A stretch of 64,000 bases of DNA, taken from a virus. Its lineage: Duplodnaviria; Caudoviricetes. The position numbers and the translations under genes were made by a program. The stretch covers positions 54,653-118,652 of the IMG/VR virus record IMGVR_UViG_3300014031_000001. One strand, 5' to 3'. This document shows positions 7,301 to 48,023 of the stretch, in pieces (the stretch's first letter is position 1; each line of letters begins with the position of its first letter). The notes beneath the pieces are model-generated. The model was not told where the DNA came from, did no database searches, and saw only the letters and a list, made by a program, of their open reading frames with translations.

Positions 7301-7591
7301 GATTTTGGCGTTGGTCTCGAACGTGCGAAAGCCGTACTGGGGGCCGTCAAAGGCCAGGCCCGCCTCGGTGAAGTAGTCGCCATTGACGTTGTGGCCCCAC
7401 CACTCTCCGGCGCCAAGTGCGGTGATCAGTAGCTGCGTCTTGCCCTTGATGGGCTTGGCGGCGTGGATGTAGGCGGCGATCGTCGGGTGATACTCGGCAG
7501 CCGTCTTCTCCAGAAAACGATGCTCGGCGTCGATCACGTAGGTGAAGACGCCGCGGTCGGTCTTGCCGGGGAAAAGAAGGAGCTTATCCAT
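4388..7591 (-). CDS. Putative prohead maturation protease with intein and long C-terminal extension
   Basis: Spliced extein reads 'YKHHVN...DWSMG|CRVPYDVCNCCG...YCEC', a His...SMG serine-protease-like motif plus a Cys cluster. Located upstream of scaffold/capsid genes. Confidence 0.65.
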   Translation of the reverse strand: MDKLLLFPGKTDRGVFTYVIDAEHRFLEKTAAEYHPTIAAYIHAAKPIKGKTQLLITALGAGEWWGHNVNGDYFTEAGLAFDGPQYGFRTFETNAKIYKHHVNKDPTASFGTVALAVYNPTYHRVELIVLLDNAGSLDVVKKIEHGEYPDWSMGCLRADAPVLLEDFTSRAVSELQPGDRVVNGLGGISEVDYPHSHHHKGTWYHVTVLGMHSAELEPTTEEHPWLVIPAKETECSGNPNNKSRRINLCLPNRGQKKGCVACPEEARQYAKVWKPAAELELGDYVATPVIQGISEVPEPRMAYLLGLYLAEGHITADGYIELNVNAAEGQLLDKLASYFPDVSIKWTPRTNSTNAARINIYDKALARYVDTHAGRGAGTKRLSATAMRWDVESQKILLGAYCDGDGGVYKDAVYFSTCNRHLAGQVQMVLLRLGCISSMNVNLHKPSTAVFKDTVEYQIWVGRDTAPALKGYSFKTRKLAGPNKMVKNHRFIYDGHLWSPIVAISTEVCDEPVYNVAIRSETYDSDSYVVNGVALHNCRVPYDVCNCCGNKAPTRKQYCECARYYLGRWHPKYNKVVYVLNTFPRFHDISIVFIGADRIAKTLMKVAHTSTPGGVIVPSSALLAEKMAVADKAATIEKEIPADEPPFSQEALKDLADGIREVKSYEPSLPRQTLDQLARAPLPELLSTTALSGMLLKPQEFQRIVLRKMGRPGLADQLDQMGCCFDPGLVDEPTLAQTQAVGMDYRRFDPSIFSLLQPFLADRSYLAPPLGKRLFILIKEGGARQPLPTFINATNAKALEEKLAADNNERERKPIGLLPMMMLAAGLYAAAAKSGPREALSGIDKVVGEHAPLAAALGIGLAAIFNKIVGDKAKGQYAQPGVESPDTNKDVYDRIEEHKQKPMYKVAFPSSPLMNRLIIGPVGAYVGSGMLQKHRELNPNEEEGQLKRFFRLNPDVVSGALIADAMLHLRGKGTHPHLQKVGPALRTMGSKGVDLAKRWASSSSLTKVAAVEDVLTQALVWPLAFARGSSALPGKIVGGLFDQAVLAAGQKLVERNKGPSAPRVPQA
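5981..7129 (-). mobile_element. Intein (383 aa) with LAGLIDADG homing endonuclease in the protease
   Basis: Starts CLRADAPV, block B TEEHPW, LAGLIDADG motifs LLGLYLAEG and LLGAYCDGDG, ends VALHN, +1 Cys. Confidence 0.92.
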
Positions 7592-13712: not shown

Positions 13713-13722
13713 ACCAGTGCCT

Positions 13723-13730
13723 GGTATAAG
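13723..13730 (+). promoter_or_regulatory. GGTATAAG motif
   Basis: Directly after a terminator, about 38 nt upstream of the DNA polymerase ATG. Confidence 0.7.
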
Positions 13731-13767
13731 TAATTCGGTATGCACTACACACCGGAGGACGCAGCCC

Positions 13768-15627
13768 ATGAGCTGGAACTATATCACCACGCAAGGTGAA
13801 GTTGAGGCACTTCTGCCCCGACTCATGGAGAAGCCGTCCTGGGGGTTTGACACCGAAACGACCGGCCTTGATTCACACGTCGACAAGGTGCTGACGATTC
13901 AGCTCGGGCGCCCCGAAGAGCAGTTCATCATCGACGCGCGTAAGGTCGATGTCTCGCCGCTACGCCCCTTCTTCGAGTCATCGATCAAGAAGATCGCCCA
14001 CAATGGCAAGTTCGACTACAAGATGATGAAGGGCAGCTTCGGCATCGACGTCGAGAGCATCCGCTGCACCTATCTTGGCGAGAAGGCTCTGCACGTCGGG
14101 CGCCGCTTTGCCGGCTTTGATCTCGGCAGCATCATCCAAAACCGCCTCGGCATCACCGTCGACAAGGCCCTGCAAAAGTCCTTCATCGGCCACAAGGGCG
14201 AGTTCTCAAGAGAGCAGCTCGCGTACGCCGCGGCCGACGTCTCCCATCTTCTGCCGCTTTCCTTGAGCCAGTGCACCGAGATGATCGCCGACGGCATCGG
14301 CCCCACCTGGGTGCTCGAGTGCGAGGCCTTGCCGTGCTTTGGCGACATGGAGTTCGCCGGCGTCCTTCTAGACCAAGACCACTGGAAGGAGCTTATCGCC
14401 AGCAACGAAGCCGAGGCCGCGCGCCTGCGCCAAGAGATGGACGAGTACGCGCGTCACTTTTTCCCCGTCAATCTTTTCGGAGACGTCGAGATCAACTACG
14501 ACTCGCCGCCGCAGATCCTTTCGCTCCTACAGCGCATGGGGGTGCAGGTAAACGAGATGGATTTCAAAACGGGAAAGGGGTTTCAAAAGCTCGTCTACAA
14601 GACCGACGACAAGACGCTTAAAAAGGTAAAGGACACGCCTTTCATCAAGCTTCTGAAGGCCTATCGTGGATACCAAATTCGTATCAACACTTTTGGCTAC
14701 CCCTTCCTCAAAGCGGTCCACCCGGTAACGGGGCGCATCCACCCGTCGATTCGCCAGTACGGCACCGAGACCGGACGGCCCGCCGCCGCCAAGGACAAGG
14801 GCTCGGTCAACATGCTGAACATCCCGCGTGAAAACGCTTTCCGGAAAGGGTTTATTGCCCCTGACGACTACGTTGTCGAGACCGACGACTACAGCGGTTG
14901 CGAGCTGCGCATCCTCGCCGAACGCTCGCGCGACCCCGGCCTGATCGAGGCCTTCGCCAACGGCATCGACGTACACTGCTACGTCGCCAGCCGGCTCTTT
15001 GGCGTGGAAGTGACTAAAACAAATGAGAATAAAGGGCTGCGCACGCCGACCAAGCCGCTCAACTTCGGCATCGCCTACGGCATGGGCATCAGCTCCCTCT
15101 ACGAAAGAATCAACGCCGAGGGCTACCCCATCACGCTCGACGACACGGCGAAGCTCTACCGCCGCTACTGCGACGTCGAGTTCAAGGTGGCCGTCAACCA
15201 CCTGCGCGACACTGGCAAACTGGCCGTCGAGCAGGGCTACCTGGCCAACGCCAACGGGCGGCGGCGCTACTGGATGCCGCCTAACGCGCGCGATCGCGAC
15301 AAGTACCCCAACGGGGAGCGCGACCCGCGCTACCGCGGTGCCGTCGGCAAGCTCGAGCGCGAAGGCGGCAACTTCGACATCCAGTCGGTCAACGCCGACA
15401 TGACAAAGGCGGCGATGGCGTCGATCCGCGCCTACAAGAAAAAGCACAAGGTCCGCACCGAATTCGCCAACCAGGTCTACGACGAAATCGTGACCATGAC
15501 CCACAAGGGCGACACAGAGGCCTTCCACCCCATAAAGCAAAAACTGATGATCGAAGCCGCTGCGCGCTGGCTCAAGGTCGTGCCGATGGAGGTCGACGGG
15601 CACGTCGGCCCCGCCTGGCAAAAATAA
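13768..15627 (+). CDS. polA: Family A DNA polymerase (3'-5' exonuclease + polymerase, no 5' nuclease)
   Basis: Exo I DTETTG, Exo II HNGKFD, Exo III YAAADV; motif A DYSGCELRILA, motif B RTPTKPLNFGIAYG, motif C QVYDEI. ATG 13768 with RBS ggagg. Confidence 0.93.
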   Translation: MSWNYITTQGEVEALLPRLMEKPSWGFDTETTGLDSHVDKVLTIQLGRPEEQFIIDARKVDVSPLRPFFESSIKKIAHNGKFDYKMMKGSFGIDVESIRCTYLGEKALHVGRRFAGFDLGSIIQNRLGITVDKALQKSFIGHKGEFSREQLAYAAADVSHLLPLSLSQCTEMIADGIGPTWVLECEALPCFGDMEFAGVLLDQDHWKELIASNEAEAARLRQEMDEYARHFFPVNLFGDVEINYDSPPQILSLLQRMGVQVNEMDFKTGKGFQKLVYKTDDKTLKKVKDTPFIKLLKAYRGYQIRINTFGYPFLKAVHPVTGRIHPSIRQYGTETGRPAAAKDKGSVNMLNIPRENAFRKGFIAPDDYVVETDDYSGCELRILAERSRDPGLIEAFANGIDVHCYVASRLFGVEVTKTNENKGLRTPTKPLNFGIAYGMGISSLYERINAEGYPITLDDTAKLYRRYCDVEFKVAVNHLRDTGKLAVEQGYLANANGRRRYWMPPNARDRDKYPNGERDPRYRGAVGKLEREGGNFDIQSVNADMTKAAMASIRAYKKKHKVRTEFANQVYDEIVTMTHKGDTEAFHPIKQKLMIEAAARWLKVVPMEVDGHVGPAWQK

Positions 15628-21702: not shown

Positions 21703-24700
21703 CTAGTACATCGGCCCGCCCTCGATCTGGGTGTAGCGCCGCGACTTGCCGTGGAAGATGTCGGCCGCGAGCTTGCAAAAGAGCAAGCTGTGGAAAAAGT
21801 CATCAGGGTCCGAGGGCCGGTGGTCAAATTTAATCTCCCGGCGGAACTCGTTGTACTCCGTGTAGATCGACAAAATGTCCTTGGCATACGGCTCGAACTC
21901 TGCCCACTTCGGAAAACCGACGTGGCCGTTTTTCATGTCGTAGAAGAGCTCCGACATGAAAAGGTTGCGGTGCAAGTGGTAGCGCGTGCCGAGCGCGTCC
22001 CACTTGATGCGGTTTTTCAGCTTGTGCAGATACTGAAACTGCATGACGCGCTTCGGACCAAGCTTGCGCACGAGCACGTTGTTGAGGCCCCAGCCGTGGC
22101 CGTAGTCGACCCCGAGCACACGCACGCCTAGTCCGGCCGAGATGCGGCAGATGTCGTTGACGACGTGCTCGGGGTCAACCTCGCGGCCGACGTACTTCTT
22201 CACGAGCACGGTGCGAAACTTCCGCTGCGTCTCGTAGTAGCCGAGCGTGAGCACCGTGTAGGAGGCGTTACGGATCTTGCCGCTCGGGCTCTTCTCTGAG
22301 CCGTCGTTGCCCTCGCCCCAGTCGACGCCCCCGATCAGCACGCGGCTGCGCGCGTCGGCCAGATAAGGCGTCAGGTTGTTGGGGTCCCAGAGGGCGTAGT
22401 CGCCGCAGATCCCCATCAGCGCCGCTCGGCTAATCGGCTTTGACGCGGCGTCGTAGGAAAGCCCAAGCACCTCATTGGCGAACTGCCCGAAGGGGTAGTG
22501 GTCTCTCTTCCAAAGCAGCCGCGACCACTGCGACATGGTCGAGATGATCCAGGGCACCATGAGCTGCGGGATGCGGTAGCCGGCGATGGCCTTGCCGCCC
22601 GACAGCGACATCCACTGGCCTTTCGTCACGTCAAGCGGGCGCACGCACTTGGAGCAGACGGGGCCGGGCGGCAGGCGCCCCGACTCGTACCACTGCGTCG
22701 GCCCGATCGTCGTCTCGTCGAGCATGTTCCAGTGGCCGCAGCCGCATGGGACGAGCCACTCGTTTTGCGTCGAGCTCTGCCAGTAGATCTCGATCGGGTT
22801 GTCGAGGCTCTTTGGCGTCCCCGCCATGATCTCGATGGCGTCAGGAAAGTGCGACGTGCACTCGCGGATGACCGGGATCTCCGAGATGAGCATGTCCTGG
22901 AACTCGTCGAGCGCCAGCACGCGCGCCGAGATCCCGCGCGCTCTGTCGGCGCTGCGAAAGGCCGAACGCAGGAAGATGAAGGCGCCGTTGGTGAAGCCCT
23001 TCTCGAAGACCTGGTTACTGACGCCGGAGTCCTGCAGGTACTTCATGATCAGCGGCGACTTCTCGATCGCCGGCTTCAGCTTCTCGGACGAAAACTGCCG
23101 CGTCTGCGTGTGCGACGGCGACACGTAGAGGCACTTGTTGAAGGGCTTGACGGCGCTGATGGCGACGAGGTTGTTTGCGAGGAATGTTGTGTTGTGGTTG
23201 AGGATGAAGTCCGCGACAAAGGTCTCGGTCTCGGTCTGGATGCCCCAGGTGGGCTGCATGCCGAGGTCTTCGATGGTGACTATCTCGTCCCAGATGACGT
23301 CGGACTCAAGAATCGCCGCCAACGCGCCGCTCTCAAGCTCGACGTTCATCGCTGCGACTTTTTCATAGGTCGGGCAGTAGCTGCGGTTCACCCGCAATCC
23401 GGCCGACTGAAAGCCGTTGCGCTGCCAGTAAGTGCCGCGATCTTTTCTGGCCTGCAGAATGAACTCGTGGATTTCTTTTGGGAGGGTGTCGAGGTTGCTG
23501 TTGGCACGGCACGTCGACAGGGTGAAGGGCTTACCTGGAATAGGACCGAGCTCGCGGTGGAAACACGCAACAGCACGCCGCGTGATGACGCGAATATTGT
23601 AGGCGAGGCGGCCGCCGTTGCTTAGTTTGTTTTCGCGCTGGACCGTGACCACCCCAAACTTGCGCAAGAGGAGCCGCACCTGCCGCGCCAGCACCGGGCT
23701 CGTCGTGCAGTAGACGAGGTCTACTTTGGAGCTCGAAACATTTTTGCAGTGGCCGTCGGTGGCCCATAGGCCACGAAGAAGATCCCGCGTCGTCTCTTTG
23801 TCCCAACCAAAGACCTCGGCCGGGAGGTGCTTCTCGCGGGCGCAGGTGTTGGCGATGCCGCGGTCGCGAAACCAGACGGCAAGTGGCCCCTTTAGGCTAA
23901 ACGCGTAGCGCTTCGTGCCCGACCGCTCGTCGATCCAGGTGCGCGAGGGGCGGTCACCGGCGAGCTCGAGCAGACGGTCGGCCCAGGCGTTGACCTCGTC
24001 GCCCTTTTGCGTGAACCCGAAACTACTGCCGCCCGCCTTGTGCCGGTAGTAGTGGCCATCGCCCACCAGCAGCCCGAGAAGGGCCGCCCAGGAGAGGCGC
24101 GCCGTGCCGAAGGTCCCGACCGTGCGCAGGGCGGCGACGCGGTCTCCAGGCACCAGCCTGCCCGCCTCAACCCAGCCATCAAAGCGACGCAGTGGGTGAT
24201 TGAGGGTCACCTCGAGCGTCGACCCAAGCCGCGTCCTTAGGCGCACGCATCGCCGCGGCCCGTTGTCCTCGGAGGCGACGACGGTGTCGACCGCCTGGTG
24301 GCCGGCCGCATCGATGGCGATGACAGTGTCGCCGACGGTCATCTGGTCGATGGGCTTTTCGGAGCCATCCGACAAGGTGCACTGGCTAGACGCGACTAAA
24401 CATTTTTCGACCTGCCTGGCCGTCTTCAAGAGGATGCGCTGATCGGAGCGGTCGTAGATCGGCTCGAGGTAGCGGCGCCCCGTGAAGTCGAACTTCTTGC
24501 CGTCGAGATGGATCAGGTTGTGGACGAAGGCCGACTTGCGCGCGCGGATCAGTTTGCGCACCGTGCCGTCGTCGTTGAAGAGCTCGTTGATGCGGGCGGC
24601 GTGAAGAGCCGACGGCAGCTGCAGATCCTTCTCGTCGGTGTAGTCGTCGGCGTCGCGACCCTCGAGCTCGGCGAGCTCGTCGGGATCTAAATGGTCAGTG

Positions 24701-24732
24701 ATGACCATGCTGTTCACATTAGAGTCAGTCAA
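21703..24732 (-). CDS. terL: Terminase large subunit with intein
   Basis: Spliced Walker A 'LKTARQVEK|TT', 'RARGISARVLALDEFQD' Walker B, 'AGTP' coupling motif, 'GVDWG' nuclease, 'PDDFFHS'. Confidence 0.9.
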   Translation of the reverse strand: MTDSNVNSMVITDHLDPDELAELEGRDADDYTDEKDLQLPSALHAARINELFNDDGTVRKLIRARKSAFVHNLIHLDGKKFDFTGRRYLEPIYDRSDQRILLKTARQVEKCLVASSQCTLSDGSEKPIDQMTVGDTVIAIDAAGHQAVDTVVASEDNGPRRCVRLRTRLGSTLEVTLNHPLRRFDGWVEAGRLVPGDRVAALRTVGTFGTARLSWAALLGLLVGDGHYYRHKAGGSSFGFTQKGDEVNAWADRLLELAGDRPSRTWIDERSGTKRYAFSLKGPLAVWFRDRGIANTCAREKHLPAEVFGWDKETTRDLLRGLWATDGHCKNVSSSKVDLVYCTTSPVLARQVRLLLRKFGVVTVQRENKLSNGGRLAYNIRVITRRAVACFHRELGPIPGKPFTLSTCRANSNLDTLPKEIHEFILQARKDRGTYWQRNGFQSAGLRVNRSYCPTYEKVAAMNVELESGALAAILESDVIWDEIVTIEDLGMQPTWGIQTETETFVADFILNHNTTFLANNLVAISAVKPFNKCLYVSPSHTQTRQFSSEKLKPAIEKSPLIMKYLQDSGVSNQVFEKGFTNGAFIFLRSAFRSADRARGISARVLALDEFQDMLISEIPVIRECTSHFPDAIEIMAGTPKSLDNPIEIYWQSSTQNEWLVPCGCGHWNMLDETTIGPTQWYESGRLPPGPVCSKCVRPLDVTKGQWMSLSGGKAIAGYRIPQLMVPWIISTMSQWSRLLWKRDHYPFGQFANEVLGLSYDAASKPISRAALMGICGDYALWDPNNLTPYLADARSRVLIGGVDWGEGNDGSEKSPSGKIRNASYTVLTLGYYETQRKFRTVLVKKYVGREVDPEHVVNDICRISAGLGVRVLGVDYGHGWGLNNVLVRKLGPKRVMQFQYLHKLKNRIKWDALGTRYHLHRNLFMSELFYDMKNGHVGFPKWAEFEPYAKDILSIYTEYNEFRREIKFDHRPSDPDDFFHSLLFCKLAADIFHGKSRRYTQIEGGPMY
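23191..24402 (-). mobile_element. Intein (404 aa) with LAGLIDADG endonuclease in the terminase P-loop
   Basis: Starts CLVASSQC, TLNHP block B, LLGLLVGDG and LLRGLWATDG, ends ILNHN, +1 Thr. Confidence 0.92.
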
Positions 24733-35403: not shown

Positions 35404-38400
35404 TCAATATTTTCCGTCCTTGCCCTGTCCGAAGGTGGCTCCGTGTGCGAAGGCAGGGATCGGGTGCGTTCCGGCAAGGTCAGTTTTCCAGCCTTGTGCC
35501 GCGCCCTCGGTGATCGCCTTCGACAGGTTCTGGAAGCCCAAAGCCGCCATCCAGTTTTGCCGCATGAGCGGCACCGAGCCCATGCCCTTCATCAAGGGGG
35601 CATGCTTCAGCGGCTCGCGCCGGACCGAGATCTCTGCGTGTCCGTGCGATTTTAGAACTTTTGCGTCGCGCGCGTCCACCACGTGGCCCTTCTTCAAGTC
35701 CTCATAGTCGGCGTCGAGCTCGTAGCCGATGGCGTCTTCCGGCTTGGCCGTGAAGCCGAGGTTGGCGTTGTAGTGGTTGGCGACCGTGTAGCCGATGACG
35801 TCGCCCGGCAGGTGCGGGCTGTCCTTGGGGCTGTTGAGCACCTGGGTGAAGTTGCCGAGGCTGCGGACGACCGTCTCGAACATCTTGCGCTCGATGCGGA
35901 TGCCCTGGTCCTTGTAGGTCTTGTGGAGCTCGTCGACCAGGTACTCCTGGGCCGGGCGCATGCCCTTGAGCTTCACGAGGTCTTGGGGCTTCACGGCGCC
36001 GTCGGAAAGGACGTCGCCCTTGGTCACCTCGTCGCCGACCTTGACGGTGAGCTTGCGGCCGACGGGTACGTAGATTTTGTGGCTGCCGACGAAGACGTTG
36101 TGGCCGCCGCCGATGCCCTTATCGATGCGCTCCACCTTGCCGCCGACGGGCGTCAGGGGGGCGGCCCCTGGCAGGTCACCCGGCATCTTCAGAAGCTGGC
36201 CGATGCGCGCGTAGCCGCCAACGTCGGTGCCGGTGCCCGCAGCGCCCCCCGTGTGGAAGGTGCGCATGATCATCTGGACGAGCGGCTCCGAGATGGTCTG
36301 GCTCGCCTTGGCGCCAATGTTATCCCCGATGGCAGGCGCACCCCCGTGCTCATCGTGTCCAAAGCACTTGGCGCAAGTTCCTCGGGGCTGAAGGCATGTG
36401 AGAGGGGAGCGAACCTCGATTTTAGAAACGCCCCTCTTTTGAAGCGCACTGACCAGCTGCTGGTCGACAGGGGTATTACGCGCGACGCCGTCTTGATCGT
36501 GGGCCAGGTAGCGCCCCACTGCATCAGGACTGGAAATGCCGAGGGTAATACCCGCTTTAACGCCACAGTCCACCGCCGTGATGACGTTGTCTAGCGTGGT
36601 GGCCGAAATCGATTTCGAGAAGGCCCCGGGCTCACTTGTTTGGATGGCTCTGTCCATCATACCACGGCGCGCACCGTACATACTTGTCCAGTAGTCGCCG
36701 ATATTTAGCCCTTCTGAATAGGACTTTTTGATGGCGCGCGGGACGATCTTGCCGCGTGCGTCGGAGACGAAAAGCGGGGTCGCCATGATCTGGCGCAGCT
36801 GGGTCGGCTCGCCGCGGCCGCCGCCTTCGACCATGTCGAAAAGCGAGTTGCCCGTGCCGCGAAGCTTCGTCGCGAGCATGCGGTCCAAAAGCCCGACGGC
36901 GTCCTTGTTGATCTTGGTGAGGTCGGCCTCGGTCTTGGCCTTGGCGAGCTCCTTGTCGACGTGCGTCGTGATGAGGTCGCGGCTTTTGCTAAAGTCGTGC
37001 AAGTCGTCGAGCCCGAGCGAAAAGCCCTTCTCGTAGGAGTGCGTCTCGCCGGCGCTCTTGAGGGCCTGGAGGACTTTGGCGAAGTCGCCTGACGGCAGCT
37101 CTTTGGCCATACGGTTAAGCATGGCAGCCGTACCTTTTTTGTCGAGGACGGCGGTGACCTTGTACTTTTCGCCGACGATAGCGTCGAGCTTGGCGCGCCC
37201 TGCGGGGGTCTGCGACAGGTAGAAGATCCCCGTCTGCGCTTCCCAGGCGGGCGCCATCATCAGAGCGCCGCTGCCAGGCTGGAAGAGGTTGCGCGACGGC
37301 AGCATGCCCTCGGCTTCCTTGTTGGCCTCGTTGCTGATCGGCACGTGCACCGTCATGGTGTTATGCGTCAACAGTCCGTTCTGGATGCAGAAGATCTCGC
37401 CATCCGGCACGGTGAAGTCGAACATTACCTCGTGCCGTGGAACTTCAGTGATCGACGTCACCTCCTCCCAGAGCAGATCTTCGTTCAGGACGAGCTGAGC
37501 CCACTTCTCGAAAAGTCCTGAAGCCAACATGCCGTACGTGTGGAGAATATCTTTAGCGATGTGTCTCGAGATGAAGTGCGTTTTTTTCTTGAAGTGGTCA
37601 TGTAGATTGACTCTGCGTCCAGGAACCGCCTCTCGCCAGGCTGCAATCTTCGCGCGCAGCTCCTTGTTCGGGACCCGGAGCTCCTTCCCGATTTCTGCTA
37701 TTTCGTCAAACAGCGCAGCGCTGAAAGGAACGATGTCGTAGAGATTTTTACGTCGGCGCCCCGCTTTGACTTCGCAGGCTGTCTTCAGAAGCTCGGATTT
37801 ACGCCCCTCTTTCAGGGCCAGTCTGTGCATATCGTCTTTGACAACGCGCACTATTGCGAAGTCGCGGCAGCCCTTGTGCTCGCTGTCGCGGATATAGGCG
37901 CCTATCCCGACGCTAGCCATGATGAAGCGAAGCGCCTCAAGAAAGGGGCGGTTCTTCATCTCAATGCGGGCGAGCCAGTTGCCGAGCGCATCCTTGCCGA
38001 TGCTGCCTTCTGCCTGAAAGAGGCCCTGCACATAGGCAAGCCGTACGCTGTCGGGGCTTGAGACGATGCAGTCGGGAACTCGCTTGTCCTCGCACCGTGC
38101 CCCGCACTCGTCTGCGAACCAGGCAGCGATCGTTTTGTTGTAGATGCGGGCAATACAGCCGGCATGCTTGGCCGTGCTCTGTCGTTTTGTGTCCGAGTTG
38201 AAGACTGCCTTGATTGTCCGACAGCTCCGGTCGAGGAGGGCGCGCTCGGTATCGCAGATAGTGACGGTGTTGTCTGCGCTACACCCATCGCCAGCATAGT
38301 GGCCCAGGAGCCAAGCGAAATCTTCATCTACGACGTGCGACTTTTCCCCGATTTTTACGCTCTGTATGTCCTGCCCGAGCCTCGGCCGTGCTTTTGGGAG

Positions 38401-41400
38401 CAAGACCCCCGCGGGCATAACTTCTGTTTTGACGCACTGAAGGTTGAACTTCTCGTCGATGTAGCTGAAGTTGTGGTGCTCGGTAGCGACGACGCGCGTG
38501 CCGGTGTGCGTCTCGAGCTGGTAGCACGGCCCGTGCGATGTATGCACGGTAAGTCTGCGCACGTCGGCCCAGATGGGGGTGCTGTTGACCATAGAGATCG
38601 TCTGCAGGCGGCCTGGCGAGAGTTCGTAAATAGCTGTGTAGCCCCCGGCGTCTGCCACCATGTCCTCCACGCTCTTGCCGACAAGGAGGGGGAATAGCTC
38701 CCCCGCGCGGAGACTTAGGTACACCCACTGTCCGTCGTCTGTCAACAGGCGAGTGTGGCACAACGTGCTGATATCGCAGCTGTCTCCATTGAAGTCAGCG
38801 TTGAAGCCTTTGATTACCAACGGCGGAATCTTCAGCGCACGCCCCGTCGTGATCTTCGGCTTGAACGCCATGATCGAAAACTTGTGGAGCGACGGCGCGC
38901 GGTTTAGAAGGACGTGGCGGTCTTTCATGACGCGGTCAAGCGCCGTGCGTGCGAGCTTCGTGCGCCCCTTCACCTCTTCGGTGGCGGCCAGCGGGCTTTT
39001 GCCGTGGCCCTTCAGCTCGCGGATGACGAACGGCTCGAAGAGCTTCCAGGCCATCTCTTCGGGCATCGCCATCTCGTCGATGCCAAGGTCAGGCTCGGGG
39101 ATGATCGTGCCGCGGCCGACAAGATCCTGCTTTTTGGAGAGCAGCTTCGAGATGAAGTAGCCCTCTTTCGGCTGCCCACCGTCGGCGCCGCCCTTGATGG
39201 CGGCGATGAAGCCGTCACGCGTGCGACCCTTGACGTTGAGGTTCGTGAGCCCCGAGACGGCCGACACGTGGTCGTAGAGCTCCTTGCGGATGTCGGCCTT
39301 CTCGGTCTCCGGCAAGAGCTTGGCGCCCGGCAGCTGGGCCACGTAGTTGACGACGCCCGTGTTGTGGTAGAGGACGTTGATGTCGCTCGTCGTGACGTTG
39401 CCGTCGGGCAGCGGGTAGAGCGGGCGAAACTGCGGCGGGATCACCGGCAGCTTCCTGCGGATGTAGGCGTCTTCCGGGCGCAGGTTGAGCCGCACCAGGT
39501 TCTTTAGGATCTTCAACTTCTTGTTGATGTCGTCGAGCTTGTCGGCGCGCACCGTCTTGGCTTTTTCCTCGAGACGCGTGATGGCGCCCGCGACGTCGAC
39601 GCCCTTCAGGATCGACTCGATCGCCTCGCCCGAGGTGAGGCCCACGCCCGTCTCGTTGAAGGTCTTGGTCTTGGGGTCCAAGAAGAGCTTGCCCGCCATG
39701 ATCTTGTCGTAGCGGCTGCCGAGGTCGGTGATCTTCTTGACGGCGTCTTCGAAGACGGGGTTCACGACGGCGTGCGCCAGGTCCAGGTGGGACCACTTGT
39801 CGCCCTGGAAGCCGCCGAGCTTTTGGTGATCGAAGAAGCCACCCTTGACCGGCACGAAGTCTTTGGCGCGGAAAAACTGCGGGTCCTTGATCGCCATGAC
39901 CGAGATCTTCTCGACGTGCTTATCAGTGAGCGGCCCGAGCGTCAGCTCCGTGCCGTTCTTCTCGACGTCGACGCCCGCAGCCTTCAGGTAGTTCAGAAAC
40001 TTGGTGTAGGCGAACGTCTGGCGCGGCGCCGGCACCGGGTCGCCGACCTTGAGGGCCCGCCAGAACTCCTCGTTCTGGTCGCTCTTGTAGGTGGCCATCT
40101 CGCGCAGGTTGTGGCGCGCGCCGTGGGCCAGCATGGCGTTCATCGTGAGCACGTCGAGGGCCTTGGCCCCCTCGGCGCCGCCGGCCTTCAGCGGCTGGTG
40201 GTTGCCGTCGTAGGGGTGGCCGCTGCCGCCCTGGCGCACCGAGTAGTTGTGGGTGCCCTGCTTGTAGAGCTTCAGGATGTAGGGGTTGCCGACGTGGACC
40301 TTGCCGAGGCTCTTGCCCGTCGCGGCGTCGAAGAGCTCCTCTTTGTCGAGAACCCCCGACTTCTTGAGCTTCTGGCGCGTCGTGTCGAGGTAGTTCTCGC
40401 CTGAGAAGTTGTCGACGACGTGGGGCTTGCCGTCCTTCAGCGCGGCCTTGCCGGCGGCCGACTCGTAGATCTGGCCGATGTTGATCCGGCTGATGACGCC
40501 GTGGGGGTTCAGCAACATATGGACGGGGTTGCCCGCCTTGTCCTTCGGCGCCTCGCTGTCGGGGATGATCTTGGTGATGATCCCCTTGTTGCCGTTGCGG
40601 CCCGCGATCTTGTCGCCGATGCGCGCGCGTTCTTCGGTCTTCACGTAGACCAGGATCTTGTCTTTGCGCTTTTGGACGTCCATGACGTAGCCGGTGTCTT
40701 CGTAGTGCCAGTAGACGGAGACGTCGCGGGGCCTTTCCGACAGGGCCTTGTTGATGACGGCGATGACCTGGCTTGGCGGGCGCTGCTTGAGCGCCGCGAC
40801 GAGGATCGTGCCCTGCGTGACCTTCGAGCCCTTCTTGATGACGCCGTCTTCGTCCAAAAGCTGGGCGTTCGCCGGGGTCAGCTGGCTCGGGTAGGTGGCG
40901 CGAAACTTCGCCAGGTTGAGCTGGATCGTGACGTCGCGGTCGATCGCTTCCTTGTGGACGTGCTCGCTTGTGAGCTGGTCGGCCCCCGAGTTGGTGATGA
41001 CGACGCCGTCTTCGAAGTTGAGGCCCTTGTAGGGCAGGTAGGCGACGCGCATGTTGGTGCCGAGCGCGAGCGTGCCGTTTTTGCTGAAGTTGCTATCGGC
41101 GAGCAGGTCGCCCTTGGCCACCTTGTCGCCGACTTTGACCTTCACCTCGTGGTTGAGAAAACTTTTCCGGTTGAGCGTGAAGTTGTTGTATAGGTTCACC
41201 TGCTTGTCGCCTGACGGTGTCGCCAGCACGAGAAAGTCGGGGGTCACCTTTTTTACCGTGCCGCTGTCGGGCGCCATCGCCGCGACCGAGCCGCCGATCA
41301 CCTCCTCCATCGAAGCCCCGGGGGTCGCGCCGACTTGGACGAGAGGCGCCTCGCGATGCTTCAGGCTGATCGCCTGCTCCATCTGCTTGGCGGCCATCAT

Positions 41401-42858
41401 CGCCCGGTTGCCCTGGTTGGAGGCGAGAAAGGGGATGAGGTTGGTCGACCACGAGAAGAGCGCCGACGGCGCCGGTGTGAAAAAATCCACGTCCTTGCGC
41501 TTCACCCGGATCGTCTCGCCGCGGTGCATGGCGTCGATGACGTCGCCCTTTTGCCCAGGCAGCGCGACCTTCTTGTCCCAGGCGGCCCGCGCCGTCAGGA
41601 AGTGGTCTTTGCCGTCTTGGTCCTTCACCGCCATCTTCAGGTCTTTGCCGTCCTTGCGGACACCGATCGGCAGGTGCAGGTTGGCACCTATCTTTTTGCT
41701 TTCGGGAGTATGGATCGGATCAAGAAGACCATAGTGCGTCGGATGAATCTGACGCATCTCCGGCGTAATCGCGTGCTCAGAGCCAATGCCGCCGGCGCCC
41801 ATGATGGTCGTAGCGTAGGCACCAGTAAGCATCTCAAGAGGGTTGGTCTGCTCTGGTGTTGCCGACTTGTCGTCTTGGGTGAAAAAACTCTCGACGGTGG
41901 AGCTAAAAGACCCAGGGTTAAGAATCTGCGAAATCTTCGTTCGCTTGGGGTTGTTGAGGCCCCGCTGGATCTTATAGCCGAGAGACCGAGTATTTTTTTC
42001 AAGGCGTTCCCCGATAAAATCTTCCACCGAGTGGATGTCCTTGAACATCAAGGAATCGCGGTCCACGGGCTCTTTTTTACCCATGTGGACGTCGTGAAGA
42101 TTTTTCGAGGCGGCAAGCAGCATCGGCCCGTCGACCTTGTCGAAGGCCTTGCCGAGCACAAGCTCGGTCGTCTCTTCGCCGAGCTTCGTCTGCGAGAGGT
42201 AGTCTTTCAGCTGGCTGCCGGGCTTGACGCCAAAAGCTGCCGCGGCCTTGGCGATAGCGCGCGGGTCGTTGCTGCGGTTGGCGGCCTCGATGTCGGTGCC
42301 CCAGGTACGCGCGATAAGCCCGGGGCTGACGCCCAGGTAGGTGAGCACCGGGTAGAGCGGCACCTTGCCGGTGCCGCCGGCGATGTTGGTCATGTAGAAG
42401 ATGCCGGACTCTTCAGCGAACGTCAGGTCGAAGTTCTTGCCCTTCGCCAGGTTCACCTGGGTCTTGAGCTGGCCGTTCTGACGGCGCAGCGTGTAGACGC
42501 CGGGCTTAAGCCGCAGCTGATTGTGGACCTGGTACTCGTTGCCCTTGACGATGTAGCTCATGCGCGCCGTCAGTTTCGGTAGCGTGAAAAGCCGCACCTT
42601 CGTCGCGCGGTCCAGCACCGTGCTCGTGGCGTTGTCTTTTAAAGTGACGCTCGCGTAGACGTTGACGCCCCAGGTGCCCTCGTCATTTTTCGTCTTCGCC
42701 TGGTCGACGTAGTCGTGCGCGCTCGACGTGTCCTCGATAGTGACGCCGTCAAGGCTCAGCGTGCGCGTGCGGCCGACAACAGGGAAGACGCGGCCAATGG
42801 CCAGCGTCGCGGCCTTCTTGATGTCTTCGAACTGCTGGTCGATTCCGAAATTTCGCAT
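35404..42858 (-). CDS. DNA-directed RNA polymerase, fused beta-beta' single polypeptide, with intein
   Basis: Beta motifs: HTPESKKIG, NRAMMAAKQMEQA, GDKIAGRNGNKG, LNPHGVISRINIGQ. Beta' motifs in the same ORF: LPVIPPQFRP, LLNRAPSLH, NADFNGD|TM, bridge helix ARRGMMDRAIQTSEPG, trigger loop EPLVQMIMRTFHTGG. Confidence 0.95.
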   Translation of the reverse strand: MRNFGIDQQFEDIKKAATLAIGRVFPVVGRTRTLSLDGVTIEDTSSAHDYVDQAKTKNDEGTWGVNVYASVTLKDNATSTVLDRATKVRLFTLPKLTARMSYIVKGNEYQVHNQLRLKPGVYTLRRQNGQLKTQVNLAKGKNFDLTFAEESGIFYMTNIAGGTGKVPLYPVLTYLGVSPGLIARTWGTDIEAANRSNDPRAIAKAAAAFGVKPGSQLKDYLSQTKLGEETTELVLGKAFDKVDGPMLLAASKNLHDVHMGKKEPVDRDSLMFKDIHSVEDFIGERLEKNTRSLGYKIQRGLNNPKRTKISQILNPGSFSSTVESFFTQDDKSATPEQTNPLEMLTGAYATTIMGAGGIGSEHAITPEMRQIHPTHYGLLDPIHTPESKKIGANLHLPIGVRKDGKDLKMAVKDQDGKDHFLTARAAWDKKVALPGQKGDVIDAMHRGETIRVKRKDVDFFTPAPSALFSWSTNLIPFLASNQGNRAMMAAKQMEQAISLKHREAPLVQVGATPGASMEEVIGGSVAAMAPDSGTVKKVTPDFLVLATPSGDKQVNLYNNFTLNRKSFLNHEVKVKVGDKVAKGDLLADSNFSKNGTLALGTNMRVAYLPYKGLNFEDGVVITNSGADQLTSEHVHKEAIDRDVTIQLNLAKFRATYPSQLTPANAQLLDEDGVIKKGSKVTQGTILVAALKQRPPSQVIAVINKALSERPRDVSVYWHYEDTGYVMDVQKRKDKILVYVKTEERARIGDKIAGRNGNKGIITKIIPDSEAPKDKAGNPVHMLLNPHGVISRINIGQIYESAAGKAALKDGKPHVVDNFSGENYLDTTRQKLKKSGVLDKEELFDAATGKSLGKVHVGNPYILKLYKQGTHNYSVRQGGSGHPYDGNHQPLKAGGAEGAKALDVLTMNAMLAHGARHNLREMATYKSDQNEEFWRALKVGDPVPAPRQTFAYTKFLNYLKAAGVDVEKNGTELTLGPLTDKHVEKISVMAIKDPQFFRAKDFVPVKGGFFDHQKLGGFQGDKWSHLDLAHAVVNPVFEDAVKKITDLGSRYDKIMAGKLFLDPKTKTFNETGVGLTSGEAIESILKGVDVAGAITRLEEKAKTVRADKLDDINKKLKILKNLVRLNLRPEDAYIRRKLPVIPPQFRPLYPLPDGNVTTSDINVLYHNTGVVNYVAQLPGAKLLPETEKADIRKELYDHVSAVSGLTNLNVKGRTRDGFIAAIKGGADGGQPKEGYFISKLLSKKQDLVGRGTIIPEPDLGIDEMAMPEEMAWKLFEPFVIRELKGHGKSPLAATEEVKGRTKLARTALDRVMKDRHVLLNRAPSLHKFSIMAFKPKITTGRALKIPPLVIKGFNADFNGDSCDISTLCHTRLLTDDGQWVYLSLRAGELFPLLVGKSVEDMVADAGGYTAIYELSPGRLQTISMVNSTPIWADVRRLTVHTSHGPCYQLETHTGTRVVATEHHNFSYIDEKFNLQCVKTEVMPAGVLLPKARPRLGQDIQSVKIGEKSHVVDEDFAWLLGHYAGDGCSADNTVTICDTERALLDRSCRTIKAVFNSDTKRQSTAKHAGCIARIYNKTIAAWFADECGARCEDKRVPDCIVSSPDSVRLAYVQGLFQAEGSIGKDALGNWLARIEMKNRPFLEALRFIMASVGIGAYIRDSEHKGCRDFAIVRVVKDDMHRLALKEGRKSELLKTACEVKAGRRRKNLYDIVPFSAALFDEIAEIGKELRVPNKELRAKIAAWREAVPGRRVNLHDHFKKKTHFISRHIAKDILHTYGMLASGLFEKWAQLVLNEDLLWEEVTSITEVPRHEVMFDFTVPDGEIFCIQNGLLTHNTMTVHVPISNEANKEAEGMLPSRNLFQPGSGALMMAPAWEAQTGIFYLSQTPAGRAKLDAIVGEKYKVTAVLDKKGTAAMLNRMAKELPSGDFAKVLQALKSAGETHSYEKGFSLGLDDLHDFSKSRDLITTHVDKELAKAKTEADLTKINKDAVGLLDRMLATKLRGTGNSLFDMVEGGGRGEPTQLRQIMATPLFVSDARGKIVPRAIKKSYSEGLNIGDYWTSMYGARRGMMDRAIQTSEPGAFSKSISATTLDNVITAVDCGVKAGITLGISSPDAVGRYLAHDQDGVARNTPVDQQLVSALQKRGVSKIEVRSPLTCLQPRGTCAKCFGHDEHGGAPAIGDNIGAKASQTISEPLVQMIMRTFHTGGAAGTGTDVGGYARIGQLLKMPGDLPGAAPLTPVGGKVERIDKGIGGGHNVFVGSHKIYVPVGRKLTVKVGDEVTKGDVLSDGAVKPQDLVKLKGMRPAQEYLVDELHKTYKDQGIRIERKMFETVVRSLGNFTQVLNSPKDSPHLPGDVIGYTVANHYNANLGFTAKPEDAIGYELDADYEDLKKGHVVDARDAKVLKSHGHAEISVRREPLKHAPLMKGMGSVPLMRQNWMAALGFQNLSKAITEGAAQGWKTDLAGTHPIPAFAHGATFGQGKDGKY
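37360..38781 (-). mobile_element. Intein (474 aa) with LAGLIDADG endonuclease inserted directly after the RNAP catalytic motif
   Basis: Starts SCDISTLC (Ser1), TEHHNF block B, LLGHYAGDG and VQGLFQAEG, ends LLTHN, +1 Thr. Removal restores NADFNGD-TMTVHVP. Confidence 0.92.
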
Positions 42859-44266: not shown

Positions 44267-44454
44267 GTCACCACCAAGTAGATGAATTCCGTGGAGCCGA
44301 CGATCTGGCCTTCGTTGTAGTCGCGTTCGACTTTCTTTATCTGGCGCTCGGTGATGATCGTGCACAGCGGGTTGTTCAAGATCGCCTGGTAGTCGGCCAG
44401 GTTATTGTCGTCCAGCAGGTCGAAGCGCCCCACGTGGCGGCGGCTCTTGTACAT
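44242..44454 (-). CDS. Hypothetical small protein
   Basis: 70 aa, coupled to the portal stop codon. Confidence 0.6.
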   Translation of the reverse strand: MYKSRRHVGRFDLLDDNNLADYQAILNNPLCTIITERQIKKVERDYNEGQIVGSTEFIYLVVTWEERTLL

Positions 44455-47400
44455 CAGCTGGCCCCGGTCATGGGCCGCGCGCCGACCATCTCCATGCGCT
44501 GGGCGCCGACGCGCCCCTGCGGCATGGCGTCCATGTTGGGGGCCGTACTGACGCCGCCGCTGCCCCCCATCTCGGCCATCTTCATCTTATAGAGCCGCTC
44601 GAGCTGCTGGCCGACGTCGGGCATCTTCACCTTGATGTCGGTGATCGTGAGGTTGGCCTGGCCAGGGTCCATCTTGATCAGCTGGCTCGTCCAGCGCTCA
44701 AGCCGCTGCTGGACCATGTCGGGCTGGGGCGGGCCCTTGCCGCCCGCCGCGGGGGCGCCAGGGGCGGGCGGGCCGCCGGCGCCGCCCTGGGCGGCCTGCT
44801 GGACGTTGCCAGGCATCCCGCCCGGGTCCTGGCCTTGGCCGCCACCGGGGGCGCCGGCGTCAGGGGTCGCGCCTGGGAGGGGCTGGCCGTCAGGGCCGAC
44901 CTGGCCCTGCTGGAACATCTCGGGGGTCGCCTCGCCCTTGGCGATCATCTGCTGCATCTTCTTTTGGGCGGAGATCTGCGCCTTCTGCGCGAGCTCCTGG
45001 ACTTTCGACTGGTAGTTGAACTGCACGAGCGAGGCCTCGCCCTGGGCCTTGGCGGCGCCCTTCGTCTGCAGGTCGGAGATGTAGTTTTGGATGAAGAGCT
45101 CTTCGATCTTTTTCTTGGTCTCCTGCTCGTAGTCGAAGCCAAGCTCCGTGAGCATCGTGTGGTCCGAGAGCTTGCCGGAGGCGTTGAGGCCGACGACCTG
45201 CTGGTTCCTCTGGACGTCGTCGGCCATCCGGAAGTCGGCAAAGCGCACGCGCTTCACGTCAGGGATGTCGAGCCACACGCGGATCTTTTCTTTGATCCAA
45301 AAGACCAGGTCTAGAAGCTGGCTGCGGTTTTGGATGAAGTCGTTTTCCAAGGTACGCAGCGAGATCGAGGACCCCGTGTTGTGCGAGATGATCCCGTTGG
45401 CAACGTAGCTGTGGGTGTTGAAGACCGTGAGGTCGCACATCTCGACTTCTTCGTCAGAGAAGGTGACCTCCTCGATCTGATCCCACCAGTGGTCGGCCTT
45501 CTTGGCCTCCGCGACCCGGTCGTAAAGTACAGGGTCTAGGGCCTTGACGCCCTCCCAGTTCACAAGCTCGTAGTTGTTGTCTGTCAGCTCCCAGGTCGTC
45601 TGACCGAGGGCAGCGCGCTTTTGCGTGCCGTAGTTTTCTAGGAAGGCTTCCAGCGCGGGCTTCGTGATGAGCCAGCTCGGGTAGCGCCCGTCGTTTCGAG
45701 CTTCCTTCTCGGCGACGAGCTTGCCCTTACGGATGTAGAGGATGACGCTAGAGACGTCTCGGTCCAGGATGTCGGCGACTTCCGCAGTCGTGTAGAGGTC
45801 TTTTTGCAGGTCGTGCTGGCGATGCTCTTTGATCCATGCGCCGAAGCCGTTTTGCAGCTTGCGTAGGGCCTTCAGGTTGTCCATGACGTAGGGGATCTTG
45901 TTGGCTTCGCAGCGAAAGCCTTGACGATCCGCGACTTCACGGTAAAGCCGGTTTTTACGCTCTGTGGTAAAGCCGATCTCCTTCATGAAGAGGCTGACGT
46001 ACTCGGAGCGAATTTGCAGCGAGTGGGTGTTGTTGTTCAGGCCGCTGAAGCTTTCAGCGCACTCGCCGGTGTAGGGCGGGTAGCGCGTCGACAAGATGCC
46101 GAAGTTCATCAAGAGGAGCTGGACTTCCTCGATCAGCCGCTCGGACACCGAGTTGTAGTGGATCGTCTGTTTTTTATCGCGGTCGACGATGCACCCGTCA
46201 CCGCTAAAAAGCGCGCTGAGGAACGCGGCGACGGACGCCTTGGTGCCTTCGCGGATGAGGCGCGGCACGCGCTTGGTATGGGAGTAGTGCTGCATGTCGA
46301 GCGTCTTGAGCTCAGCCGTGACGGCGGAGTCGCGGCACTGGACCTGCGCGTAGGGGTGGTTGCCGCCGCTCTCCGAGAAGTCGCGCCACTGCAGCGCGGG
46401 CCGCTTGCCGAAAGTCCCCTCAAAGCAGTCGAGGTAGTCCTCAAGAATTGCCTTGTCGGTGTTACCGAAGTCGGTACATTTTTCAGTGACCGAGCCCTCT
46501 GCCACGAGGTAGCCGAGCAGTCGGCACAGATTCGGGTTTACAGCCCGGTCGCCCCAGAGGCCAGTCTGCTTTTTGAGCGCGACGTACTCGCCCGGCTTGA
46601 AGTTCTGCAGCGCCTTCCAGCCCATTTCAACTTCGCCGTCGATGGTCCAAACTTTGTGGACCGGTGAGCCGGTCAGCGTCAGACCCGAGCGCATCTTGAT
46701 CTTGACCTGCTTGCGCTTCGCGGTGTGGTGCGTCAGCGCAACACGCTCCACGCCATCCTTCGTCAAGACAGAAAAATCAGCCTCCGCGATTCCGGGCTCT
46801 TCCGGGCAGAGTTCCTCGAGGCGAAGAAGGCCCTTCGATGTCATGCAAAGCGTTGATTTTATTGAGCAAAAGTTCAAACCGCCGAAAAGAAATTCTTGTG
46901 GAATTCCCATTCCCCCAACAATCGTTTGCGTCAGGTAGTTGAGCTCGGGGGACAGCAGCAGCGCCTTGCCGTCACCGCCGATGCGGCCAAAGCCCACCGG
47001 AATCGGGATGACCGCCTTGAAGTTGGGGTCGGCCCGGTGGCGCGTGATGATGTCTTCGATCTTGACCTTCCAGTCGGCCAGGTCGGTGTGGATGTAGGGG
47101 TCCTGCTGCGCGTTCGGCATCGGGTAGATGATGTCGAAGGGGACGATGTGCTCAAGTGCGATCGCCTCCTGGGCGCGGCGCAGCGTGTAGAAGTAGAACA
47201 TGTCTTTTAGCACGTGGATGATCGTCGGCTTGCCCCAGCCCTGGTCTTGCTCGGCCAAGGTCGGGTTCTTCAGGTGCTTGATCGCGCGGTCGTCGAGGCG
47301 AATGAGTCGGCGCTTTTTGAGCGCATCCAGGACGACCAGCGGGATGTCTTCCAGCACGTCCTTGTCGCCGCGCTGGATCATCGAGCGCAGCTTACCAGGC

Positions 47401-48023
47401 ACCGAGTACATGTAAATGTAGCGGCCCGTGTAGTCATTGAACTTGATGTGGATGTTCTCGGGGTTCCAGCGAATCAAGCGGATCGACTTGCGGTCTTTGT
47501 AGGGCACGTCTTTGACGTCGACGGCGCCGCGCTTATTGCACTCGGCGCAGACGCCCGTGAAATGGTAGTCGCCGCCGTTGAAGCTCCAGTCCCACTGACG
47601 AATAGGCTGGCGGTACTTGCAGCCCTGGCAGATCAGAAAGCGCGTGAACGGCAGGTGGATCGAGACGAAGGCGTTGCCGTAGACGTGGTAGTCGAGGTTC
47701 ACCTCCATCAAGCGGTCTTTGAGCTTGAGCTCGTCGACCAAGATGGTGCGCCAGACGTCGCGCACGCTGTCGAGCTCGTCTTCGAAGATGAGGTCGGTGA
47801 TCGGGTAGCGACTGATCTTCTTGATCGAGCTGCCAATGAGTGGGCTGTTGTAGAAGTAGAACGTGCACCAGCGGAAGAGCTCTTTGATCGTCGGCGGCAT
47901 GTACTGCTGCGACAAATCGAAGAACTGGTTGGGATAGCGCGTCCCGCGGCCGCCGCCCCCAATCGAGATGTTGGGGTTGACGCTGCGTGTCTGCGACGAG
48001 CCGCTGATGTCAAGGTTGGTCAT
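44454..48023 (-). CDS. Portal protein with intein, Zn-ribbon insertion and Gln/Gly/Pro-rich tail
   Basis: 'EVNLDYHVYGNAFV', 'IRWNPENI', 'HLK...GWGKPTI', 'GMGIPQEFLFGG' are portal-like. CQGC...CAEC insertion. Confidence 0.75.
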   Translation of the reverse strand: MTNLDISGSSQTRSVNPNISIGGGGRGTRYPNQFFDLSQQYMPPTIKELFRWCTFYFYNSPLIGSSIKKISRYPITDLIFEDELDSVRDVWRTILVDELKLKDRLMEVNLDYHVYGNAFVSIHLPFTRFLICQGCKYRQPIRQWDWSFNGGDYHFTGVCAECNKRGAVDVKDVPYKDRKSIRLIRWNPENIHIKFNDYTGRYIYMYSVPGKLRSMIQRGDKDVLEDIPLVVLDALKKRRLIRLDDRAIKHLKNPTLAEQDQGWGKPTIIHVLKDMFYFYTLRRAQEAIALEHIVPFDIIYPMPNAQQDPYIHTDLADWKVKIEDIITRHRADPNFKAVIPIPVGFGRIGGDGKALLLSPELNYLTQTIVGGMGIPQEFLFGGLNFCSIKSTLCMTSKGLLRLEELCPEEPGIAEADFSVLTKDGVERVALTHHTAKRKQVKIKMRSGLTLTGSPVHKVWTIDGEVEMGWKALQNFKPGEYVALKKQTGLWGDRAVNPNLCRLLGYLVAEGSVTEKCTDFGNTDKAILEDYLDCFEGTFGKRPALQWRDFSESGGNHPYAQVQCRDSAVTAELKTLDMQHYSHTKRVPRLIREGTKASVAAFLSALFSGDGCIVDRDKKQTIHYNSVSERLIEEVQLLLMNFGILSTRYPPYTGECAESFSGLNNNTHSLQIRSEYVSLFMKEIGFTTERKNRLYREVADRQGFRCEANKIPYVMDNLKALRKLQNGFGAWIKEHRQHDLQKDLYTTAEVADILDRDVSSVILYIRKGKLVAEKEARNDGRYPSWLITKPALEAFLENYGTQKRAALGQTTWELTDNNYELVNWEGVKALDPVLYDRVAEAKKADHWWDQIEEVTFSDEEVEMCDLTVFNTHSYVANGIISHNTGSSISLRTLENDFIQNRSQLLDLVFWIKEKIRVWLDIPDVKRVRFADFRMADDVQRNQQVVGLNASGKLSDHTMLTELGFDYEQETKKKIEELFIQNYISDLQTKGAAKAQGEASLVQFNYQSKVQELAQKAQISAQKKMQQMIAKGEATPEMFQQGQVGPDGQPLPGATPDAGAPGGGQGQDPGGMPGNVQQAAQGGAGGPPAPGAPAAGGKGPPQPDMVQQRLERWTSQLIKMDPGQANLTITDIKVKMPDVGQQLERLYKMKMAEMGGSGGVSTAPNMDAMPQGRVGAQRMEMVGARPMTGAS
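45378..46868 (-). mobile_element. Intein (497 aa) with LAGLIDADG endonuclease and an extra HTH domain
   Basis: Starts CSIKSTLC, SPVHKV block B, LLGYLVAEG and LSALFSGDG, ends IISHN, +1 Thr. Confidence 0.9.

Follow-up and report, generated by a model that had tools for sequence, protein, structure and literature searches.

Catalytic loop and intein of a phage RNA polymerase

The window analysed here is a stretch of 64,000 nucleotides (nt) that forms the 3′ 64 kb of a phage record from soil metagenomes (IMG/VR virus record IMGVR_UViG_3300014031_000001; 118,652 bp, ∼81% complete), and it encodes a fused β-β′ RNA polymerase (RNAP) whose Mg2+-binding catalytic loop is followed immediately by an intein. 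The frame contains Rpb2 (β) and then Rpb1 (β′) domains of bacterial type (Pfam Rpb2_6, Rpb2_3, Rpb1_1, Rpb1_2, and Rpb1_5), interrupted by matches to the Pfam families Intein_splicing and LAGLIDADG_3 that both lie above their cut-offs (PF14890, 38.4 bits against a cut-off of 35.8; PF14528, 35.4 bits against 22.5). Multisubunit RNAPs hold Mg2+ with three Asp, and the loop encoded here departs from that rule at the central residue, which is Asn1357 (Table 1). One published account describes the Asp triad of NADFDGD as invariant in all multisubunit RNAPs and as needed for their catalysis (PMC4982682, citing Sosunov 2005). Two further hallmarks of the enzyme, noted as motif presence only, are the GDK..R.GNKG motif of β (GDKIAGRNGNKG, amino acids [aa] 748–759) and the trigger loop MRTFHTGG (aa 2198–2205). 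The nearest named phages are only ∼31–33% identical to this RNAP, and a megablast search of the gene against a phage collection gave no match. A second RNAP gene was not found in the 118.7-kb record, which is itself ∼81% complete.

A first-pass annotation, made from the letters of the window, had described an NADFNGD loop directly abutting an intein in an otherwise intact enzyme, with AAT and GGA codons atypical of the gene. Its description stands: the codons are exactly those it gave, Ser1360 is residue 1 of the intein, the single open frame retains the Rpb2 and Rpb1 domains along with the β motif and the trigger loop, and the codon counts in the host part (see below) bear out the unusual codon choice.

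Both boundaries of the intein are fixed by intein-free homologues, which read ...DFDGD-TMTVHVP... continuously; the C-terminus, LLTHN (37360–37374), is followed by host residues TMTVHVPIS. The insert conforms in all sequence criteria to a canonical class-1 LAGLIDADG intein, and the solved inteins closest to it in sequence are PI-PkoII (2cw7) and those of V-ATPases (7qss, 7qsu).

Table 1. The RNAP gene of the window, its catalytic loop, and the parts of its intein (numbering by window position and by residue of the precursor).
Feature	Position	Strand	Detail
Fused β-β′ RNAP precursor gene	35404..42858	-	one open frame; 2484 aa with intein, ∼2010 aa spliced
N-extein	38782..42858	-	aa 1–1359; β module and β′ as far as the catalytic loop; from alignment to intein-free homologues through ...DGD
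Mg-binding catalytic loop, encoded NADFNGD	38782..38802	-	aa 1353–1359; codons AAC GCT GAC TTC AAT GGA GAC
Asn1357 codon	38788..38790	-	AAT; position −3 to the intein; replaces central Asp of the triad
Class-1 intein with nested LAGLIDADG homing endonuclease	37360..38781	-	474 aa, aa 1360–1833
Ser1, intein N-terminal nucleophile	38779..38781	-	Ser1360, AGC
HTSHGP motif (H-T-S/T-H)	38527..38544	-	∼15 residues ahead of block B; family-wide
Block B, T-E-H-H-N-F	38467..38484	-	T-E-H-H at aa 1459–1462
First LAGLIDADG motif	38281..38310	-	LLGHYAGDGC
Second LAGLIDADG motif	38002..38034	-	YVQGLFQAEGS
Blocks F and G	37360..37428	-	penultimate His and terminal Asn (..THN)
C-extein	35404..37359	-	Thr+1 onward (TMTVHVPIS...), with stop codon; trigger loop 36244–36267
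Tryptic peptide of the ligated product covering residue 1357			starts GFNADFNGDTMTVHVPISNEANK

Linkage of the asparagine to one intein family

Asn occupies position −3 in all 43 alleles that carry this intein family, in none of 94 intein-free loops, and in none of ∼80 alleles with other inserts at the same DGD/T site (the slash marks the insertion point); the tally draws on part of at least 549 RNAP homologues and 1537 intein matches, and two of its rows were corrected by eye. Among the best 120 homologues of the region, seven read DFNGD and all seven hold the same kind of Ser1 insert, while the intein-free proteins of this set all read D-x-D-G-D. Searching an index of 5.8 billion proteins with the intein as query yielded 13 more RNAPs, and a HMMER search with the intein over 1.84 billion cluster representatives yielded ∼20 more clusters. 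These added members have intein identities down to ∼25% and very different RNAP architectures, the catalytic loop lying anywhere from aa 24 to aa 2263, and every one of them reads D[FYH]NGD followed by Ser or, once, by Cys.

In the family, residue 1 is Ser in 42 members (encoded by both TCN and AGY codons) and Cys in one, nearly all members end in THN/T or THN/S (one has TRN), and the LAGLIDADG motifs ..GDG.. and ..AEG.. are conserved. An HTSHGP-type motif is present in 37 of the 37 aligned Asn-linked inteins, with H-T-x-H partly kept in Asp-linked sister inteins, and G..T and KT are further invariant motifs.

At the DNA level, degenerate pattern scans of IMG/VR and JGI metagenome contigs found the RNAP motif only ahead of this intein; ahead of Thr-Met, the intein-free arrangement, it was never found in RNAPs in these scans. 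Matches to L006 and L008 (primase-helicase), L007, L011, L015, and L075, together with 49 of 50 genome matches, were discarded as chance hits in unrelated proteins. In a set of one genome each for 185,579 prokaryote species the exact motif occurred in an RNAP once only (L074), in an intein-less, cellular-type rpoC fragment reading ...AAFNADFNGDQMAVHLPLS... on the minus strand (∼4835–4858) of a 5.3-kb contig from a Salinibacterium-assigned metagenome-assembled genome. It may reflect faulty assembly or a minority variant, or be a true oddity.

Logan contigs from three soil-metagenome runs of one study (depth 12.6, 32.9, and 18.8) match the window exactly over 38300–39300. Contigs rather than raw reads were compared, so minority variants are possible, and because the three runs may be source samples of the record, the comparative evidence is the weightier. 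With both in hand, we regard the Asn as almost certainly real and linked to the intein. The first-pass annotation had proposed to align homologues with and without the intein and to treat universal DFDGD as the mark of an isolated change; that sequence does appear in all intein-free homologues, but not in those invaded by this family. Our literature search found no description of NADFNGD or of an intein-linked substitution in the NADFDGD loop. New here is an entire intein family that brings with it a changed host residue, one that is catalytic and otherwise invariant.

Mobility and co-conversion

A tree of the host protein was built from 1910 alignment columns with the catalytic-site region removed. 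Seven alleles combining Asn and intein fall at 6–7 separate places on this tree, each adjoining DFDGD siblings that are intein-free or differently invaded, such that the combined allele requires 6–7 changes. All six independent pairs are concordant (sign test, p = 0.031).

The pattern is plainest in a near-identical trio, L001 and L003 (Asn and intein) and L002 (intein-free, DFDGD), whose host genes differ by 5–6% in nucleotides and ∼2% in residues. In the flanks of the intein (∼45 nt upstream, ∼115 nt downstream) the divergence climbs to 25–32%, while the inteins of L001 and L003 differ at only 7 of 1437 nt. This jump in flank divergence around near-identical inteins indicates that a foreign patch holding the Asn codon arrived with the intein in the trio. 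The codons of the window point the same way. AAT makes up 8 of the 82 Asn codons of the host part and GGA 9 of its 192 Gly codons, and third-position guanine-plus-cytosine (GC) content is 0.859 in the host part and 0.724 in the intein. Such rare codons in a gene with a third-position GC of 0.86 fit a foreign patch, and the closest relative of the window's intein, in L004, has the identical TTC AAT GGA GAC. Co-conversion, raised in the first-pass annotation as one of several possibilities, draws good support from the scattered allele, the foreign flank with its codon, and the atypical codons, but it is an incomplete account, as the Asn is also kept by selection and co-varies with block B.

Selection on the asparagine and co-variation with block B

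The Asn-linked family is old, with intein identity falling to ∼25% and tree paths of 2–3 substitutions per site, and over this span the Asn codon is AAT in most alleles and AAC in L020 and L021 but never GAY, which is one transition away. The Asn-linked inteins constitute one deep clade; Asp stands at −3 in the sister inteins P0164, P0174, and P0180, whose C-terminus is THQ. In all 37 aligned Asn-linked inteins block B takes the form [ST]-x-H-H-[ND]-F, which is absent from the six Asp-linked relatives; these six have T-D-[DQ]-H-[GS]-[ML] or similar instead. A divergent derivative of the Asn-linked clade, P0194 (1930 aa, loop at aa 1365), has Asp at −3, a block B of T-D-Q-H-S-M, and two decayed LAGLIDADG motifs; in full-length comparison it matches Asn-linked members best. 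These features suggest a return to Asp, coupled to remodelling of block B, after mobility had been lost.

Block B sits beside the N-terminal scissile bond of an intein. Host residues close to the splice junction are known to interact functionally with it (PMC6333167). That interaction, taken together with the co-variation of block B and residue −3, suggests that this family needs Asn at −3 to splice, and we consider it probable that the Asn is kept for this reason.

The host enzyme also appears to be under constraint. In P0121, P0123, and P0124 the host parts are 69–76% identical and the inteins 55–64%; the better conservation of the host parts indicates long vertical coexistence of a conserved polymerase with the Asn. 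Template-dependent RNA synthesis is accordingly the activity that purifying selection would predict for these enzymes.

Three other explanations for the persistence of the codon were considered and rejected. A constraint on AAT at the nucleotide level does not accommodate the AAC of L020 and L021. Editing of the mRNA, by which A-to-I conversion would let AAU be read as Asp, lacks a TACG-like TadA context, and the flanking codons vary among alleles. A shifted splice register that restores DGD does not agree with an intein end (...LLTHN) devoid of D-G-D or with the boundaries set by intein-free homologues.

Other inserts at the same site and in the same genome

The same RNAP site is occupied in 12 proteins by a different kind of intein, which begins with Cys after DFDGN and ends in Tyr-Asp or Trp-Asp ahead of Thr+1, the third Asp of the triad being encoded as Asn; members include P0117, P0142, P0179, P0182, P0218, P0220, P0239, P0253, P0254, P0260, and P0272. 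This DFDGN/Cys family resembles that of the window in its site, in the kind of enzyme it invades, and in that intein-bearing alleles alone encode one Asp of the triad as Asn. The two differ in the residue concerned and in their chemistry: the DFDGN/Cys inteins replace the third Asp (−1), start with Cys1, lack a His-Asn end, and terminate in Asp, whereas the intein of the window replaces the central Asp (−3), follows an Asp at −1, and has the canonical Ser1 and THN end. After splicing, the loop would contain Asn-Gly in the window's enzyme and Asn-Thr in the DFDGN/Cys family. The DFDGN/Cys family is a convergent case of Asp encoded as Asn with a different junction chemistry; no swap of residues across the junction is applicable to the window's family, because its splice residues are fully canonical.

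A third kind of insert, of ∼510 aa, lies at the DGD/T site in 22 of the best 120 homologues (P0005–P0011, P0023, P0024, P0030, and others). It starts with Gln, Glu, Asn, or Ser, followed by Gln or Met and then Leu, lacks an N-terminal nucleophile, and ends in ..LSN/T; these alleles keep DFDGD.

Further inserts occur elsewhere in these genes. Comparison of the nearly identical genes of L003 and L001 (alignment columns 1155–2210) shows a second insert of ∼350 aa in the β part, present in P0015 and absent from P0012, and other RNAP homologues reach 2877–3221 aa with two or three inserts. The multiple inserts suggest that these polymerase genes are intein hot spots. Elsewhere in the window, inteins with a LAGLIDADG domain interrupt a probable portal gene (44454–48023, minus strand) and the gene for the terminase large subunit (21703–24732, minus strand), and a third large gene (4388–7591, minus strand; 1067 aa) also contains a LAGLIDADG domain. 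Together with that of the RNAP, this makes three inteins at the least, perhaps four, in 64 kb of phage DNA. The window further encodes a family-A DNA polymerase with a 3′-5′ exonuclease domain (13717–15627, plus strand; Pfam).

Salmonella phage Arash (L076, OQ632216.1) is a distant relative (RNAP identity ∼33%) that has the portal-then-RNAP gene order in common with the window. Its RNAP is split into gp206 and gp216 (130093–134670 and 139441–141261, ∼4.8 kb apart). The homology of the window's N-extein to Arash stops exactly at the catalytic loop, and both Arash products are abundant in virions (PMC10585845).

Function of the spliced enzyme

The explanation that we favour, with confidence somewhat better than even, is that the Asn is an inherited property of a mobile intein clade, selected for splicing and tolerated in the mature enzyme. 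A deep clade of otherwise canonical class-1 inteins, with an endonuclease that looks intact, targets the DGD/T site of phage RNAP catalytic loops, and the comparison of alleles indicates that the Asn codon, lying 7–9 nt away from the junction, is carried by homing co-conversion into every gene that the intein newly enters. Purifying selection would then keep the Asn, most likely as the N-terminal catalytic pocket has adapted to Asn over Asp at −3; judging from the co-variation, reversion to Asp would impair splicing. The precursor would be unable to polymerise in any case, its loop being interrupted. Once spliced, the loop would read DFNGD-T, and the enzyme, which is probably packaged in the virion, may work less efficiently, Asn serving as a neutral ligand of Mg2+, a cost that could be tolerated since the intein spreads by homing. 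Slow deamidation of Asn-Gly may add some enzyme of the Asp form. That the Asn persists in the working enzyme is our best guess, by a narrow margin, for this last part of the scheme, and a tentative one.

Several points weigh against this explanation. A working DFNGD enzyme would be unprecedented, given that the triad is described as invariant (PMC4982682), and the trio contains no compensating change in the host protein outside the co-converted patch. Other inteins at the same site, with Ser1 as well as Cys1, keep DFDGD, so that Asn is no general requirement for splicing there. The co-variation with block B amounts to one clade and one reversal, and hence to few independent events. Finally, splicing, homing, and the mature chemistry of residue 1357 are all predictions from sequence.

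Asn-Gly is the dipeptide most prone to deamidation, and the leading rival explanation, possible though in our judgement doubtful, builds on this chemistry: the polymerase would be a pro-enzyme with a masked aspartate, and after splicing Asn1357 would deamidate to Asp or isoAsp, either spontaneously in the virion or aided by Mg2+ or the intein. Were this somewhat unlikely course the real one, the enzyme, as the first-pass annotation had also envisaged, would start out inactive and gain its activity only afterwards, its triad would be completed post-translationally, and the intein would have become indispensable to the host gene. The dipeptide stands at a functional position (N1357-G1358) and is found in all 43 alleles, Gly follows none of the three Asp but the central one, the universal invariance of Asp argues that a working enzyme needs it, and near-identical siblings show no change that compensates for the Asn. 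Time for the reaction may also be available, if on circumstantial grounds: no protein of purified Arash virions is more abundant than the RNAP (Gp206/Gp216; PMC10585845), and this packaging together with the shared gene order suggests that the window's enzyme may wait days to months before use. Against these points, the succinimide route normally gives mostly isoAsp, and even free peptides need about a day or longer for the reaction, so that fresh virions would hold mostly the Asn enzyme. The DFDGN/Cys family yields Asn-Thr, which is not prone to deamidation, and an explanation common to both families would therefore not be deamidation, while the return of P0194 to Asp after decay of its endonuclease suggests that the Asn carries a cost. 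An isoaspartyl methyltransferase gene (PF01135) was not found in the 118.7-kb record, which counts weakly if at all, as hosts have one and the record is incomplete. The probability not taken up by persistence of the Asn or by a masked Asp is shared among other routes.

The selected role in splicing that we favour has a simpler competitor, in which the Asn arose once in the founder of the family and merely hitch-hikes in the co-conversion tract as a neutral or mildly harmful passenger with no part in splicing. We consider this improbable: the codon does always travel with the intein and does lie 7–9 nt from the junction, inside the foreign patch, but across divergence to ∼25% protein identity it has exchanged AAT for AAC synonymously and never made the single A-to-G change to Asp, and block B co-varies with the residue, one reversal included.

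It is very improbable that the polymerase is a catalytically dead remnant and that the phage uses another RNAP. A change from Asp to Asn in the triad is expected to cripple catalysis, and a second RNAP might be encoded in the part that is missing from the ∼81% complete record. However, this is the sole RNAP gene in 118.7 kb, its 2484-aa frame is intact with all other catalytic motifs present, and Asn-bearing lineages show strong purifying selection and long divergence with a conserved host protein; a dead enzyme is unlikely for these reasons. The possibility of a one-base sequencing or assembly error, or of a recent mutation private to this phage, which the first-pass annotation had listed since a single base separates AAT from GAT in a gene known from a metagenome contig, is negligible in view of three identical run-wise assemblies and of 42 further sequences, from many samples, that share the Asn and bring the family to 43 of 43 alleles.

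To our knowledge, the aspartate triad of NADFDGD is among the most invariant features in biology. Here, one mobile intein family, distributed across dozens of diverse phage RNAPs, always comes with the central Asp encoded as Asn, and a second, unrelated intein family does likewise to the third Asp. The system is also a clean natural case of a selfish element writing its own sequence into the catalytic centre of the protein it invades, and the supposition that RNAPs cannot do without the aspartate triad can be put directly to the test in it. If the Asn persists, multisubunit-type RNAPs may work on two Asp and one Asn, which would revise the triad requirement; if the Asp is instead masked, a catalytic carboxylate would be re-made after translation, a new route of enzyme maturation and a possible timer for a virion-packaged polymerase.

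Comparison with known systems

With class-1 LAGLIDADG inteins such as PI-PkoII and those of V-ATPases, the present family has in common Ser or Cys at position 1, the T-x-x-H of block B, a His-Asn end, and Thr+1, as well as two LAGLIDADG motifs, a target site where an essential enzyme is most conserved, and a sporadic distribution of the homing type. It differs in always accompanying a change in the catalytic site of the host protein, Asn in place of the otherwise invariant central Asp (position −3), and it has a block B of its own (H-H-N-F) in addition to the invariant G..T, HTSHGP, and KT motifs.

Deamidation that confers function has an example in fibronectin, in which NGR becomes isoDGR. 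This deamidation clock and the RNAP loop are alike in placing Asn-Gly where a carboxylate is functionally needed, the loop being known from its encoded sequence alone; we know of no case in which deamidation re-creates a metal ligand of a polymerase.

For an Asn that remains in place, the reverse transcriptase of Ty1 offers a parallel. Its D211N variant is still an active polymerase, but its kpol is 223-fold lower, it prefers Mn2+, and in vivo it no longer supports transposition (PMC2148107). Both enzymes have one of three active-site Asp changed to Asn, and polymerase activity is retained in the Ty1 variant, which differs in being an engineered mutant of an unrelated polymerase fold.

Partnerships between inteins and exteins provide precedents for a role of residue −3 in splicing. 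In the M86 DnaB intein the −1 residue compensates for the His of block B (PMC6333167), and further partnerships are found in RadA of P. horikoshii (PMC5790916) and in SufB of M. tuberculosis, where histidines of the N-extein are involved (PMC8891592). These systems and the present proposal have in common that the intein co-evolves with host residues, some close to the junction and some distant, which tune or gate its splicing; the difference is that the host residues concerned in those systems are not catalytic ones given up by the host enzyme.

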